Sequence record: NC_027378.1
Source of the DNA: Escherichia phage Seurat
Strand: one strand, 5' to 3'
DNA: 56,776 nucleotides
Positions 5,970 through 56,319 of the stretch are shown here, piece by piece. Made by a program: the position numbers and the translations under genes. The notes under the pieces were generated by a model, which was not told the DNA's origin, searched no databases, and saw only the letters and a list, made by a program, of their open reading frames with translations. Position 1 is the stretch's first letter, and each line of letters starts with the position of its first letter.

Positions 5970-5996
5970 GGGGACATCTTATGTCCCCTCTTTTTT
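5970..5996 (+). terminator. rho-independent terminator after the capsid gene
   Basis: GGGGACAT-ctt-ATGTCCCC hairpin followed by TCTTTTTT. Confidence 0.7.
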
Positions 5997-6008
5997 AGGA
6001 GAACAACC

Positions 6009-6332
6009 ATGCGTTATCAACGTTATGAGCGACATGACTTGATGGAAAAATCGTTGCAGGTGGAGCCAATTTCGATTACTCTCGATCCTGCTACGATTGA
6101 CACCACAACTTCAGAAGTAAAAACGGTTACTGTTAAAATAAACTTTGTCCCAGGCGGAACTACAAACAAAGCGTATAGCGCGTCAGTTGACGGTTCCTCT
6201 GCTACAATTAAAGACAACGGGGACGGTACAATTACTGTGACCACAACCGAAAGCAGTGGTACTTCAAACTTGACAGTAACGTCCAAGGCAAAGGATAGTG
6301 TTACTGGTACATGTGTTATTAATGTGACCTAA
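6009..6332 (+). CDS. Ig-like (Big_2-type) domain protein, candidate head decoration protein
   Basis: Thr/Ser/Val-rich beta-strand pattern (TVTVKINF...TITVTTTE...LTVTSKAKD...TCVINVT); RBS AGGAGAA. Confidence 0.55.
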   Translation: MRYQRYERHDLMEKSLQVEPISITLDPATIDTTTSEVKTVTVKINFVPGGTTNKAYSASVDGSSATIKDNGDGTITVTTTESSGTSNLTVTSKAKDSVTGTCVINVT

Positions 6333-29835: not shown

Positions 29836-30024
29836 TTAGAACCCTTTAAGGCTAATATTAAGATTAACGACCACTTGTTCAACTACATCATCAGATGTCA
29901 TCTGACGCTTATGAATTTCAAGCTCCGAATGTATGTTCTTGGATGCAGCACGACAGATAGCGTCATTCAGCTCGTCTTGTAAACGTTGCATCTTCTGCAT
30001 AAGAATCACAGTCTCTTCATTCAT
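29836..30024 (-). CDS. hypothetical small protein
   Basis: 62 aa, helical, charged. Confidence 0.4.
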   Translation of the reverse strand: MNEETVILMQKMQRLQDELNDAICRAASKNIHSELEIHKRQMTSDDVVEQVVVNLNISLKGF

Positions 30025-30229
30025 CTTCTACACCTTTAATATCACAAGGATTGATTGTTACATTTGACATCACAATTGGATGATTGCGTGCTCCGATTGT
30101 ACTAACGTGATTAATATCTAATTCTACATGCACGCCCTGCATAGTAGCGTGAGCAATTGAAGAATTAAGTTTTTCTACCAGCTCAGTGATCATTTCCTGA
30201 TGCTGTTTCGCTTCTTCCAAAGTGATCAT
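30017..30229 (-). CDS. hypothetical small protein
   Basis: 70 aa. Confidence 0.4.
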   Translation of the reverse strand: MITLEEAKQHQEMITELVEKLNSSIAHATMQGVHVELDINHVSTIGARNHPIVMSNVTINPCDIKGVEDE

Positions 30230-30484
30230 TTAAACCTCCGTTAATGTTTGAGTCCAGTCTAAGCCTTCAAGGTCTACATCAGCTATTTCATCGTACTCGT
30301 AAGCTCCCGGATCTGCTGGCAGCCATCTATCAAATCGATGGCTGAGTTCTGGAGGAATTGCTTCATACCCCCAAACCTTCCCATCCTTGTCGGCTGCCAG
30401 ATAATCAACTCGACTTGGAACGGTTAAAGCGACACCACAAAAATTAACATCTTTAGTATGCACAACCTGACTTAATACACGCAT
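30230..30484 (-). CDS. small acidic protein, member of a three-copy paralogous family
   Basis: VPSRVDYLAADKDGKVWGYEAIPP...GLDWTQTLTEV shares motifs with the 51099 and 51682 proteins. Confidence 0.5.
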   Translation of the reverse strand: MRVLSQVVHTKDVNFCGVALTVPSRVDYLAADKDGKVWGYEAIPPELSHRFDRWLPADPGAYEYDEIADVDLEGLDWTQTLTEV

Positions 30485-31191
30485 TATTCCACCCCGATAT
30501 ATTTGTGGACCTGAAGCTGCAACGTGTACCCGTGTTTCATACAGCTTTGGACAACCGCTTGGATATTACTGTGGTTAAGGTCTTCATCCTGCTCGTCCAT
30601 TGGCTGTAAATATATCTTACCCTTGAAACCCTTCGGAGGTCTAGCGATAAATGGCGTAGCTTGATGATCTAATGCCTGAAGCGGCAAACCATCTTCCACG
30701 TTTACACAGCACGCTTTAAGTACATATTTAAATGCATTAGCGCGGCGCAGCACAGAAGGATGAATCTTTGAGGTCTTGGGACTACATACAATTACAGGTA
30801 ACTGGGAAAAGTTCTTAGGTAAAGGCATAGACCCATTAGTTTCAATTTGCACCAAATAGCCGCGCGATAACAGTTGTTCAATAAACGGGTTAATTTGCTG
30901 ACGGAACGGTTCACCCCCAGTGATAACCACAAGTGAGGTGCTATTACCTGATTCCAGCTTACGGCTTTCGATTAAACGCATAATATCAACAATATGATAA
31001 AGACTACGACCAACAGTATAATCGGTATCACAGCCAGGGCATTGCAGATTACACCCAGCAAGACGCACAAATACAGCAGGTTGGCCGCAGAATGGACCTT
31101 CACCCTGAATGGTAGAGAATACCGAATGCACGTCTAAATACATATCGTTTTCTTTAGAACGGGACTCGGGAGCTTGTTGATTAATATTCAT
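30484..31191 (-). CDS. queE: 7-carboxy-7-deazaguanine synthase (radical SAM)
   Basis: CNLQCPGCDTDY cluster-binding motif near the N-terminus; 235 aa. Confidence 0.85.
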   Translation of the reverse strand: MNINQQAPESRSKENDMYLDVHSVFSTIQGEGPFCGQPAVFVRLAGCNLQCPGCDTDYTVGRSLYHIVDIMRLIESRKLESGNSTSLVVITGGEPFRQQINPFIEQLLSRGYLVQIETNGSMPLPKNFSQLPVIVCSPKTSKIHPSVLRRANAFKYVLKACCVNVEDGLPLQALDHQATPFIARPPKGFKGKIYLQPMDEQDEDLNHSNIQAVVQSCMKHGYTLQLQVHKYIGVE

Positions 31192-31260: not shown

Positions 31261-32073
31261 TTACAAGCCGTTCAGGGCTTCCGGTACTGGCATAGGTACG
31301 CGACCAGTTACACCATTAAACTTCTTCCAACGTGCATACTGAGTTTTAACGGTATCTTCGTTCAGACCGTGGCGACCTGCCAGATTCAGAACATAAGAGA
31401 TCGGAGCAGGCTGACCCAGCGTAGCGCTAATCTGATCCATCAGAGCCCAGGCACGACCGCAGGAAGTTTCAGGTTGCGGACGACGAACACCATTCTGTTC
31501 GGGCATACGGTTCGCTTCTTTCGCTTTTTCACGTTCAGCTTTTTCGCGGGCTTTTTCAGCAGCCTTTTCAGCCTGTTTAGCAGCGCGGATCTTGTCTTTG
31601 AAGCCTTTGATAGACGAATCCAGTTCGTCAACCATGCTCTGAGCAGCAGTTACTGCACCGGACAGATCTTCACCTTTGGATTTTTTAACAACTGCTTTCA
31701 GATCTTTCAGAGCATTCTTTAAATGCTTCAGCTGTTCGGAACCCTTAGATTCTGCTTCCGTAATCTGTTCAACAGTGCTTTCATCGGTAATACCGGATAA
31801 AGCAAGCTTCACGGTTTCAACTGCCTGGGAAAGAGTGGTAAATTTATTTTCCGCTTCAGTACGAATTTCAGCTTGTTTCTTTTCAGCGGCAGCTTTTTTC
31901 TCTGCTTCTTTTTTCTCTTTTGCTACGCGTGCAGCTTCAGCAGCAGCGGCTTTTTTAGCTTCTGCGTCGTTAGCAGTAGCTTCTTTCTTTGCAGGCTTAG
32001 CAGATTTTGCAGCGGCAGCAGCGGCTGCGGCAGCAGCGGCTTTCTTATCTTCAATATTACTCATTTTCTTCAC
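31261..32073 (-). CDS. Lys/Ala-rich histone H1-like protein with a C-terminal globular, possibly DNA-binding, domain
   Basis: N-terminal KKAAAAAAAAAAAKSAKPAKKE... low-complexity tract; C-terminal WALMDQISATLGQPAPISYVLNLAGRHGL. Confidence 0.5.
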   Translation of the reverse strand: MKKMSNIEDKKAAAAAAAAAAAKSAKPAKKEATANDAEAKKAAAAEAARVAKEKKEAEKKAAAEKKQAEIRTEAENKFTTLSQAVETVKLALSGITDESTVEQITEAESKGSEQLKHLKNALKDLKAVVKKSKGEDLSGAVTAAQSMVDELDSSIKGFKDKIRAAKQAEKAAEKAREKAEREKAKEANRMPEQNGVRRPQPETSCGRAWALMDQISATLGQPAPISYVLNLAGRHGLNEDTVKTQYARWKKFNGVTGRVPMPVPEALNGL

Positions 32074-50492: not shown

Positions 50493-50750
50493 ATGTGCGA
50501 CTCCAGTGCAAGCGCTACACCCAGCACCTCCAGCAATGTGGTTACAGAGGTAAATGCAATGCGATTAGGTCCATATCGCGGCTATTATGGTCGGGCAGCA
50601 TGGAATGACGCTACTCAACGTTTTGAAGGCTGGATTATCTGCCCGGAACGTGTTAAATTTCACTCCGTAAAAGAGAAAAATATCGTTCTTAATTTTCAAA
50701 AATGTGTCACTAAATATGTAGAGGAGCAAGAAGAATGTCTTATCAATTAG
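50493..50750 (+). CDS. hypothetical protein
   Basis: 85 aa; RBS AAGGAGG. Confidence 0.5.
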   Translation: MCDSSASATPSTSSNVVTEVNAMRLGPYRGYYGRAAWNDATQRFEGWIICPERVKFHSVKEKNIVLNFQKCVTKYVEEQEECLIN

Positions 50751-51097
50751 CTTTAGAAGCTGCCGGATGCGAAGTATTAGATTATGTTGAATACGGCTGC
50801 TATCAAGGTGAGTGGCTTGCATTGATCCGCAAGGACGGCGCTTTGGGAGTTTGCGAAGGGTCTTATGGTTCCTGCTCAGTTTGCGATGCATTTGAGGCTG
50901 AATTTGGTTATTTAGATGATGAGGAAGCGGATTACCAGAAACGTCTTGCAGATTTTGGAGAAGGTTACTTACCCGCAAATACTTTTGAAGAGATGATTGC
51001 TAAGCTTCAGAAGGATGTTGAAAACTATTCATACGATGACGATTATAAGTCAATGTTGAATACAGTTATTAACTGGCAAAAGCAATACGGGGTTTAA
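50735..51097 (+). CDS. highly acidic protein
   Basis: 120 aa rich in D/E/Y; RBS GAGGAG. Confidence 0.5.
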   Translation: MSYQLALEAAGCEVLDYVEYGCYQGEWLALIRKDGALGVCEGSYGSCSVCDAFEAEFGYLDDEEADYQKRLADFGEGYLPANTFEEMIAKLQKDVENYSYDDDYKSMLNTVINWQKQYGV

Positions 51098-51098
51098 G

Positions 51099-51338
51099 AT
51101 GCGTTTAAAGTATAAGCAAAAGATTGTAGAATACTTCGGGATGCAACTTGTTGTCCCTGAATGGGTTAAATGGCTTGCTGTCGATGGTGATGGGGAGCTG
51201 TACGGTTACGAATGCGAGCCTGATAACTTAGTTGATGAACCGTGGGACGAATGGTACACAGAAGAAGGTAAATGTTACCGCATTACAGAAGTAGTTCTTG
51301 AAGAACATTGGTCTGAAACCTTAGTGGAGCTTTTCTAA
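51099..51338 (+). CDS. small acidic protein, paralogous family member
   Basis: VPEWVKWLAVDGDGELYGYECEPD...EEHWSETLVEL. Confidence 0.5.
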   Translation: MRLKYKQKIVEYFGMQLVVPEWVKWLAVDGDGELYGYECEPDNLVDEPWDEWYTEEGKCYRITEVVLEEHWSETLVELF

Positions 51339-51339
51339 A

Positions 51340-51630
51340 ATGCACATAGAAGAACTTGTTGAAGGCAAAGAGTATCGTTTACTGACCGATATTGGTGGTG
51401 TTGGGTATACTCCGGATGATGCGGCTTGTTTTAACGTCCTTCCGCAAGGTGCTATCGTGACAGTTAACAAGGTCGTTACCGATTTATACAGTGTTCATGA
51501 CGGCAGATGGCCATATGCAGTTATTGTCACCTTCGGTAAAGATGGTTATGTGGACCTTGATGGCGAAGACGATACTTACGAAGTTGCGTATACAGGTCTG
51601 GTAAGTCCCAATTTCCTGGAAGAAGTATAA
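51340..51630 (+). CDS. hypothetical acidic protein
   Basis: 96 aa. Confidence 0.45.
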   Translation: MHIEELVEGKEYRLLTDIGGVGYTPDDAACFNVLPQGAIVTVNKVVTDLYSVHDGRWPYAVIVTFGKDGYVDLDGEDDTYEVAYTGLVSPNFLEEV

Positions 51631-51681
51631 TTATCAATCTATAATGGGCTCTACGGAGCCCTTAATTATCTGGAGGTTGTT

Positions 51682-51978
51682 ATGCTGTATTTAGGAATGG
51701 ACGAAACTGGACACGCGATTCCTTCCGTTAACAAGGAGACGCAAGTATTTACCGACTATTACGGGTCTGCTGTCCCTGTTGAGCCCTGGGCTAACTTTAT
51801 CGCTGTAGACGCAGACGGTAAAGTACATTGTTATGACGCCAAACCTTCTTGCTATGAATCTGGTAAGCAATGGATGCTTGGCGTATACGGTTTGCATGTT
51901 CGCTACTGCGGCGAAGTTGACATTGAAGGTGTGGACTGGCGCGATACGTTGAAGGAGATTAAAGATGTCCGCGGCTGA
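51682..51978 (+). CDS. small acidic protein, paralogous family member
   Basis: VEPWANFIAVDADGKVHCYDAKPS...GVDWRDTLKEI; RBS GGAGG. Confidence 0.5.
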   Translation: MLYLGMDETGHAIPSVNKETQVFTDYYGSAVPVEPWANFIAVDADGKVHCYDAKPSCYESGKQWMLGVYGLHVRYCGEVDIEGVDWRDTLKEIKDVRG

Positions 51979-53087: not shown

Positions 53088-53155
53088 TTGAAGAAAATAT
53101 CAAATATTGGAAAGGCTTTATTGACGAAATGTTGAAACCATTGGAGAAGAAATAA
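53081..53155 (+). CDS. translationally coupled micro-ORF (24 aa), not in the ORF track
   Basis: ATG overlaps the upstream stop (ATGGTGA) and its TAA overlaps the downstream ATG (TAATG). Confidence 0.35.
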   Translation: MVIEENIKYWKGFIDEMLKPLEKK

Positions 53156-53547
53156 TGCTATTAGTCGTCACCGGAGGTCGAGATTTTAAGCATGTGGAGT
53201 ATATTTACGCTCAATTGGATAAGCTGCATATGCAAAGAAGGATAACCACACTTCGCCACGGTGACGCTGACGGTGTTGACCGGATTTGCGCACATTGGGC
53301 GGAGCGCAACGGTATTAAAACAGAAGCATTCCCTGCCCCGTGGGACAATCTTTCCTTACCAAATACCAAGATACGGTATAATGCCAAAGGTGCTTATAAT
53401 GCACAAGCAGGCGCTTACCGCAACCAATTAATGCTGGATACTGATCCTAAACCAGATCACGCTATTGTGTTTCCTGGCGGAGCTGGTACTATGGATATGT
53501 ACAGACGGATTAAAGCATCCGGTATTCCTTACACTTTAGCGGAGTAA
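53155..53547 (+). CDS. SLOG/LOG-like Rossmann-fold protein (DUF2493-like)
   Basis: VVTGGRDF, GDADGVDR and VFPGGAGTMDM glycine-rich motifs. Confidence 0.45.
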   Translation: MLLVVTGGRDFKHVEYIYAQLDKLHMQRRITTLRHGDADGVDRICAHWAERNGIKTEAFPAPWDNLSLPNTKIRYNAKGAYNAQAGAYRNQLMLDTDPKPDHAIVFPGGAGTMDMYRRIKASGIPYTLAE

Positions 53548-55974: not shown

Positions 55975-56319
55975 ATGTTCAATTCACCCAACGAACATTG
56001 GGCAGTTCTAGCGGGGTTTGCGTTTATCTCCCTCATTGGGGGAGCTCTCGGTTATGTCATGCGTACAATAGACGCTGGTAAGAAAGTACGGGCAAGCATT
56101 GCATTTCTTGAAGGCTTATCCGCCGCTTTCTTTGGCGTTATAATGTATGCGATCTACAGGGAGTTTAACATCAGCCTTTGGTTCGCTTTTGGCCTTGCTG
56201 GCCTATTTGCTTGGGCAGGTTCACGTGCTACGCTAAAAGCCCTAACGTCGCTTATAGCTTCACGGACAGGGATCAAACTCGATTCAGGGGACTGCAAACA
56301 TGAAAACGATTCTAAATAA
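55975..56319 (+). CDS. membrane protein (3 TM), holin-like
   Basis: 114 aa; three hydrophobic helices; RBS GGAGGG; just upstream of the spanins. Confidence 0.45.
   Translation: MFNSPNEHWAVLAGFAFISLIGGALGYVMRTIDAGKKVRASIAFLEGLSAAFFGVIMYAIYREFNISLWFAFGLAGLFAWAGSRATLKALTSLIASRTGIKLDSGDCKHENDSK

Follow-up and report, generated by a model that had tools for sequence, protein, structure and literature searches.

The genome of Escherichia phage Seurat (NC_027378.1; 56,776 nucleotides (nt), analysed over its full length and referred to below as the window) encodes three small acidic proteins, here termed copies A, B and C, which are true paralogues within a large, phage-restricted and uncharacterised domain family. 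Seurat is a virulent siphovirus with 7-deazaguanine DNA modification, and the records closest to its genome were those of Seuratvirus genomes within the Queuovirinae. Comparison with such relatives presented the A and C loci as hot spots of gene exchange and copy B as stably conserved. The favoured explanation, to which a probability of about 0.4 was assigned, is that the family domain is a non-enzymatic binding module, in which a variable hairpin would set the specificity and whose swappable copies would track variable host targets, for example proteins of defence or of the nucleotide pool.

Homology of the three Seurat copies

An earlier note on this DNA had described the three open reading frames (ORFs) as a paralogous family of small acidic proteins, two encoded rightward and one beside queE, that share a core motif and a C-terminal W-x-x-T-L-x-E. 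All three ORFs were present as described (Table 1), and pairwise BLASTP returned E values of 3e-8 (A/B), 6e-12 (A/C) and 9e-10 (B/C). The note had named equally scoring shuffled controls as grounds for discarding the similarity; in Smith-Waterman comparisons, however, none of the 2000 shuffles per pair reached the real score, and z values of 10.3, 16.1 and 13.9 were obtained. When the proteins were aligned over their full length, 16 columns were invariant, among them those of A-x-D-x-D-G, Y, P, W and the W-x-x-T-L-x-E at the C-terminus, and the quoted core motif was conserved across the copies, except that its V-P-x-W-V part fitted copy B only loosely. The acidity of the proteins, the rightward orientation of A and B (both on the + strand) and the position of copy C, the ATG of which overlaps the queE stop codon (TAATG), were also borne out. 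No fourth copy was found when a hidden Markov model (HMM) of the three sequences was searched against the six-frame translation of the whole window, the next best match having an E value of 0.58.

The description of the genes as duplicated stood as far as paralogy is concerned, but not in the sense of a recent event. With pairwise identities of only 30-39%, separate orthologues of each copy in other Queuovirinae and a C-like gene in the A slot of a relative, the pattern is one of old paralogy combined with exchange between slots, and not of recent duplication in Seurat. Each copy begins with an ATG preceded by a plausible Shine-Dalgarno sequence, which in copy B is a GGAGG located 6 nt 5' of the start codon. 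Copy B additionally carries a conserved 20-residue N-terminal extension (MLYLGMD...), and the sequence of copy A is identical to that of the NCBI protein CPT_Seurat73. A and B are tightly packed against their neighbouring genes, and the ORF following copy C begins directly after its TAA. The view that A, B and C are real genes, as opposed to chance ORFs, is supported by the ratio of nonsynonymous to synonymous substitution (dN/dS) in copy B and by a family of more than 1000 clusters. Their behaviour as accessory genes is likewise supported, by the swapping of copy C as a cassette and the absence or replacement of copy A in relatives.

The phrog_1972 family and its predicted fold

All three proteins matched phrog_1972, a sequence cluster with no assigned function, nearly end to end (E values of 1.2e-21, 8.9e-28 and 8.4e-23 for A, B and C, respectively), and none gave a Pfam or NCBIfam match reaching threshold. 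A UniRef label of DUF5111 on copy A was not trustworthy, the match scoring 15.4 bits (E 0.017) against a gathering threshold of 31.9 bits, and B and C had no match to DUF5111 at E<=1. The three proteins can be placed in phrog_1972 and not in DUF5111, AcrIC9 or any curated family. The family had thus already been catalogued as a sequence cluster; its entry carries no function, structure or domain description, and the arrays, the fusions, the architecture of scaffold and hypervariable segment and the cassette behaviour described here are unrecorded in it. No literature was found under the name phrog_1972, and the genes go unmentioned in the Seuratvirus comparative-genomics paper and in the deazaguanine paper of Hutinet (2019).

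An exhaustive HMMER profile search over 1.84 billion cluster representatives recovered 1,362 clusters with E<=1e-3, of which 176 had E<=1e-10; the majority were phage proteins of about 80 amino acids (aa). Tandem arrays of two to nine diverged domains in one polypeptide were common (five repeats in protein P0033, eight matched stretches in P0029 and nine in P0034), as were tandem gene copies, and two-domain proteins of 160-180 aa formed a further class. Two very long matches, P0030 (4,529 aa, with PKD domains) and P0037 (1,897 aa, with MBG_2 domains), were rejected as false positives, because their scores add up 20-40 separate stretches, none of which exceeds 7 bits. The GenBank phages carrying family members comprised Seuratvirus, Nonagvirus, Klebsiella siphoviruses of about 48 kilobases (kb), Carvajevirus, Wifcevirus, the T4-like Bragavirus and jumbo phages of the GAP32/CBB type, and the relatives in these records were annotated as hypothetical. 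The first 50 kb of phage T4 contained no member at E<=1. A word-indexed search of 5.8 billion proteins yielded no Pfam domains, and no names other than 'hypothetical protein' or, on copy A, DUF5111. A DUF4314 label on a two-domain Bragavirus homologue was not reproduced by Pfam, and the labels 'Hfq', 'HicB' and 'DNA directed RNA polymerase subunit' in relatives, which came from records with plainly unreliable names, were disregarded. Implausible names of this kind, 'hemoglobin I' among them, were borne by family members and their neighbours in PQ202980.1 (CSP1C) and OM687892.1 (vB_KpnS-MUC-5), and none had Pfam or PHROG support in the Seurat orthologues.

An AlphaFold2 model of copy C, built from a 25-sequence alignment, reached a mean predicted local distance difference test score (pLDDT) of 87.4 and a predicted template modelling score (pTM) of 0.74, and consisted of seven beta strands and one short helical turn. 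When a two-domain relative was modelled from an independent 16-sequence alignment, the same strand pattern appeared twice, on either side of a low-confidence linker, with a pTM of 0.55. Because the pattern is repeated, the linker is of low confidence and the pTM is 0.55, the models show the domain (about 75 residues) as a predicted autonomous folding unit, an independent bead and not a section of one larger closed structure. A Foldseek search with the predicted fold against BFVD gave 23 matches at E<=1e-3, all to uncharacterised phage proteins, of which several are multi-domain and several come from the same phage. Against the PDB, no relative of the fold was found, the best E value being 1.4.

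Column entropies, calculated over 113 single-domain members, divided the domain into a conserved scaffold and a hypervariable segment. The scaffold follows the pattern [VI]-x-[YF]-[FY]-G ... V-P ... [YFW]-[LI]-A-x-D-x-[DN]-G-x-[VL]-x-x-[YF] ... P ... W ... V-D-L-E-G-x-D-W-x-x-T-L-x-E and includes V13, Y/F15, F16, G17, V22, P23, A30, D32, D/N34, G35, V37, Y40, P45, W54, V70-D-L-E-G74, D76, W77, T80 and L81. Entropy was below 1 bit at the 15 best of these positions (13, 15, 17, 22, 30, 32, 35, 45, 54, 72-74, 77, 80 and 81) and at most about 2 bits at the remainder. Positions 46-66, with the exception of W54, had near-maximal entropies of 3.4-4.0 bits and frequent insertions or deletions. This segment of about 20 residues, which extends from the invariant proline to the VDLEG motif, varies in both sequence and length, and the versions found in A, B and C are mutually unrelated. 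The conserved residues are glycines, the DxDG hairpin, aromatics and acidics. The family as a whole is acidic, with a median isoelectric point (pI) of 4.64 and 88% of members below 5.5, and no member has a hydrophobic run of nine or more residues that would suggest export. The proteins are cytoplasmic, and no catalytic motif is recognisable in them.

Allele exchange at the A and C loci

The three loci behaved differently among relatives. Copy B was 78-100% identical across Seuratviruses and, with dN/dS values of 0.03-0.17 between them, similar to those of neighbouring genes, is under purifying selection. The slot directly after queE, which holds copy C, was occupied in both Seuratvirus and Nonagvirus, with at least four allele classes in GenBank phages and more in metagenomes. 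Between Seurat and phage Greed, copy C was only 53% identical, whereas the surrounding plectin-like protein (98.1%), QueE (99.6%), orf70 (94.3%) and QueC (99.1%) were nearly unchanged. At the DNA level, identity between these two phages fell from about 97% to 30-50% at around position 30450, 34 nt into the gene, and returned to 100% at around 30225, just past the stop codon. Two proteins from metagenome assemblies of Seurat-like phages (P0026 and P0027) are 66-aa versions of copy C in which about 38 normal residues are followed by an unrelated tail; they could reflect a frameshift or pseudogenisation of the allele, or errors of assembly.

At the A locus, alleles in relatives ranged from 99% down to 44% identity. 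Matching blastn blocks against CSP1C and CAjan ended at 50737 and resumed at 51335-51339, delimiting a cassette that consists of copy A and orf120. The cassette was intact in slur01, which is collinear at 98.8%; it was replaced in CSP1C by a 46%-identical A allele without orf120, and was absent from CAjan. The orf120 product (phrog_28969) is itself acidic and contains five cysteines, including a C-x6-C-x2-C cluster, and its gene was gained or lost jointly with copy A. Furthermore, on a 62-kb metagenome contig that is about 70% identical to Seurat and otherwise collinear (L032), the DNA of the gene in the A slot (5992-6246) found its best match in copy C (window positions 30493-30242, 70%), which implies that family members move between two oppositely oriented slots some 20 kb apart. 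Taken across these genomes, the comparisons show A and C as hot spots of exchange and B as a stably conserved gene.

Table 1. Positions of the three family genes of phage Seurat and of associated features in the window
Feature	Positions	Strand	Description
Copy A (CPT_Seurat73), 79 aa, pI 4.22	51099-51338	+	Stand-alone family domain
Copy B, 98 aa, pI 4.71	51682-51978	+	Family domain with N-terminal extension; stable copy
Copy C, 84 aa, pI 4.32	30230-30484	-	Family domain; hypervariable cassette slot; translationally coupled to queE
queE (7-carboxy-7-deazaguanine synthase)	30484-31191	-	ORF; QueE annotation in relatives; context gene upstream of copy C
orf96 (phrog_27099, function unassigned)	51340-51630	+	Between copies A and B; context gene
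Variable cassette slot, orf120 (50735-51097) and copy A	50738-51334	+	Boundaries of blastn blocks

Gene context and candidate functions

Among the 57 multi-domain members, the only confident Pfam partners were dCMP_cyt_deam_1 and dGTP_diPhyd_N. The former was found in P0076, a protein from a phage contig in which seven repeats precede a canonical HAE...PCxxC dCMP deaminase. The latter was assigned, by reading of the sequence and not by a per-protein scan, to P0032, also from a phage contig, in which five repeats are followed by a MazG-like C-terminus. In the T4-like Bragaviruses Proteus phage phiP4-3 (L026, 1936-3273) and Shigella phage vB_SdyM_006 (L028), three consecutive family genes are flanked by an HAD phosphatase gene (HAD_SAK_2) and the dCTPase/dUTPase gene, in the primase-to-dda early region, and two of the three encode an extra N-terminal region of about 110 aa. 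Other members adjoin genes for PolA, 5'-3' exonuclease, primase-helicase, Thy1, RNR, a YfbR-like nucleotidase, DHFR, methylase and radical-SAM proteins, and still others are located among anonymous small ORFs near structural or lysis genes with no enzyme nearby. Several of the 14 loci examined in IMG/VR contained two or three adjacent family genes. QueE or QueC was nearby in only one of these 14, a slur01-like locus, and a general link to deazaguanine genes was not found outside the Queuovirinae. Likewise, the family did not co-occur exclusively with the 7-deazaguanine set (FolE, QueD, QueE, QueC, DpdA and YhhQ), as members were common without QueE or QueC nearby, and within Seurat itself copies A and B are far from the pathway genes. 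The association with nucleotide metabolism, together with the large catalogued family, the tandem arrays, the fusions to enzymes of deoxynucleoside triphosphate (dNTP) metabolism and the ancient, shuffled character of the paralogy, had been overlooked by the earlier note, the effector-like, anti-defence reading of which is plausible as a reasonable guess.

Under the favoured reading, the domain would act stoichiometrically as a binding module, with the conserved part providing the fold and the variable beta5-beta6 region providing the target specificity. As the variable segments of A, B and C are unrelated, the three copies would be expected to bind three different partners. The partners of at least A and C may be strain-variable host proteins, for example ones involved in defence or in control of the nucleotide pool, because the A and C slots are swapped, lost or exchanged between near-identical phages while copy B is under purifying selection. 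The tandem arrays of other phages, with their two to nine diverged domains, would then be a multivalent form of the same module. Support comes from a population pattern resembling that of an arms race, namely the divergence of copy C, the loss or replacement of copy A, the C-like gene in the A slot and the frameshifted C variants. Several points weigh on the other side. The hypervariable segment may be no more than a loop under weak constraint, and cassette replacement marks the slots as recombination hot spots but is not by itself proof of selection by the host. The coupling of copy C to queE in two genera, the fusions to dNTP enzymes and the dCTPase neighbours in Bragavirus are explained no less well by a role within the phage's own nucleotide metabolism. 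The early expression of the genes is an assumption, and no similarity was detected to any characterised anti-defence, DNA-mimic or inhibitor protein.

The main rival, judged unlikely, is that the proteins are adaptors or regulators in nucleotide, DNA-precursor or deazaguanine metabolism. They would tether or regulate the deazaguanine pathway, dCMP deaminase, dCTPase or MazG-type pyrophosphatases, with partners from the phage or the host and a possible link to replication. Such a role would suit the location of copy C between queE and queC, where stop and start codons overlap or abut, in a slot kept in Seuratvirus and Nonagvirus, and it is favoured by the identity of the two fusion partners, by the Bragavirus trio and by the members that adjoin PolA, 5'-3' exonuclease, Thy1, RNR, YfbR-like nucleotidase and DHFR genes. 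However, replication modules are rich in nucleotide enzymes anyway and the neighbour counts carry no enrichment statistic, many members have small anonymous ORFs, and no enzyme gene, around them, and the dGTP_diPhyd_N assignment in P0032 comes from sequence reading only. Outside the Queuovirinae there was no QueE/QueC link, the single positive among the 14 IMG/VR loci being slur01 itself. A partner internal to the phage should also co-evolve with its binder, yet copy C is 53% identical between phages in which its neighbours are 94-99.6% identical, and copy A can be lost entirely, as in CAjan. A further reading, in which the family is a hitherto undescribed class of modular protein binders found throughout phages, has a small beta fold that is also new and acts in a conflict over nucleotide pools, was considered doubtful. 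On this view, the targets would be host enzymes or defence proteins by which nucleotides are depleted or sensed; stand-alone copies would neutralise them, and arrays with a fused dCMP deaminase or MazG-type enzyme would bring a pool-restoring activity to them. The variable hairpin, by following the diversity of hosts, would account for the exchange of cassettes beside queE.

Conservation is strongest at aromatic and acidic side chains (Y15, F16, Y40, W54, W77, D32, D34, D71, E73 and D76), and a pocket of Trp, Tyr, Phe, Asp and Glu might serve a small-molecule binder or sponge for an uncharged or cationic ligand, such as a nucleobase or deazapurine intermediate, a nucleoside, a polyamine or S-adenosylmethionine (SAM), with tandem arrays raising the capacity. 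Known phage sponges are small proteins, similar in size to the family domain, and the family is associated with nucleotide and base-modifying enzymes. This explanation is nevertheless improbable, as there are no conserved basic residues for phosphate binding, most of the conserved residues look structural (turn glycines, the DxDG hairpin and core tryptophans), no fold match to a known sponge or ligand-binding domain was obtained, and a ligand pocket leaves the hypervariable segment and the allele swapping unexplained. That the genes are functionless remnants or chance ORFs, their similarity being duplication debris, might be argued from the dispensability of copy A in CAjan, the frameshifted C variants and the fact that no function is known. 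It is very improbable in view of purifying selection on copy B, intact frames and a scaffold maintained in more than 1,000 clusters from unrelated groups of phages, confident structure predictions and tight coupling to neighbouring genes. The least credible proposal is that the proteins are AcrIC9-type anti-CRISPRs, which would bind Cascade as DNA mimics. The best PDB sequence matches of the family profile were to AcrIC9 (8hjj and 8g9t, 44 residues over the core motif), and both AcrIC9 and the family are acidic and about 80 aa in length; the E value of 0.22 is not significant, however, and copy C alone gave no match. The AcrIC9 crystal structure has an alpha/beta fold of beta1-beta2-alpha1-beta3-alpha2-alpha3, with three strands surrounded by three helices (PMC10478522), as opposed to the all-beta, seven-stranded family model. 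AcrIC9 was also missing from the top 50 Foldseek matches in the PDB, which holds both entries. Identity with AcrIC9, the sole lead to a characterised anti-defence protein, was rejected on the fold mismatch and the failure of the fold search. A modest share of the probability was reserved for explanations not listed here.

The family has partial parallels in known systems. Like members of the family, AcrIC9, Ocr, ArdA and the T7 proteins Gp1.2, Gp2 and Gp5.9 are acidic, non-enzymatic accessory proteins of 70-100 aa that are variably present, but no significant similarity of sequence or fold linked the family to any such small acidic inhibitor in the PDB. The comparison with Ocr, ArdA and the T7 proteins draws on general knowledge and on the negative fold searches, not on direct pairwise tests. 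Acidity is shared with the DNA mimics Ocr and ArdA (pI 4.2-4.7 in the Seurat copies; family median 4.64) but is unspecific as a feature on its own, and structural resemblance to these mimics was not found. In architecture, the family is similar to polyvalent or tandem-module proteins of phages and conjugative elements and to tandem immunity-domain arrays of conflict systems (SUKH, for example) in occurring as single domains, adjacent paralogues and arrays of two to nine domains, some of which end in an enzyme. It belongs to none of the polyvalent or immunity-domain families described, and a SUKH-1 match in P0029 was weak and below threshold. The resemblances to acidic inhibitors and to polyvalent or immunity proteins are thus analogies and not demonstrated relationships.

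At present, the family is well delimited, with an unusual population pattern and testable hypotheses, and is not a demonstrated new system or mechanism. Its more than 1,000 sequence clusters extend across siphoviruses, T4-like, N4-like and jumbo phages. If it is indeed a binding module of swappable specificity, the host-manipulating proteins of phages would gain a new fold family; if a role in nucleotide metabolism applies, phage dNTP and deazaguanine pathways would have an accessory component that had gone unrecognised. Seuratviruses and the BASEL phages Bas19-24, which differ almost only in the allele of the queE-adjacent slot, constitute a natural experiment, and for phage engineering the two cassette slots mark sites of natural gene exchange.

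Several features surrounding the family genes in Seurat were also noted. The rightward block containing A and B consists of small ORFs downstream of a divergent region at about 49.3 kb and extends to the holin gene (55975-56319) and, beyond it, the structural genes; as the block reaches this far, its designation as early in the earlier note is an assumption. Between A and B, orf96 is conserved in CSP1C and CAjan; it had no match to the three-copy HMM and lies outside the family. In the 51 nt that separate orf96 from copy B, there is a GC-rich, terminator-like hairpin (51646-51661, + strand; GGGCTC-TACG-GAGCCC) followed by TTAATTATCT. The count of such sites in the region was not above that of shuffled sequence. 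Two ORFs between copy C and queC, at 30017-30229 (- strand, 70 aa, phrog_26258) and 29836-30024 (- strand, 62 aa, phrog_24420), look weakly paralogous to each other (BLASTP E 2e-4 over 26 residues), with the shared pattern L-x-x-x-L-N-x-x-I-x-x-A ... H-x-E-L-x-I. The stretch between copy C and queC is organised differently in Nonagvirus ChristophMerian. Directly upstream of queE, the ORF at 31261-32073 (- strand) encodes a 270-aa protein with an 11-alanine run, a long low-complexity region rich in Lys, Glu and Ala, and no Pfam match; it is 98% identical in Greed and 44% identical in Nonagvirus, and is labelled 'plectin 1' or 'FtrA domain' in relatives. Finally, 1.2 kb 3' of copy B, the ORF at 53155-53547 (+ strand) encodes a YspA/cpYpsA-related SLOG-family protein (PF10686, E 4.9e-18), the labels of which vary among relatives ('GTP-binding domain', 'DNA binding protein' and 'threonine-tRNA ligase'). 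Since SLOG domains bind nucleotides, this protein is a candidate nucleotide-signal or nucleotide-pool protein.

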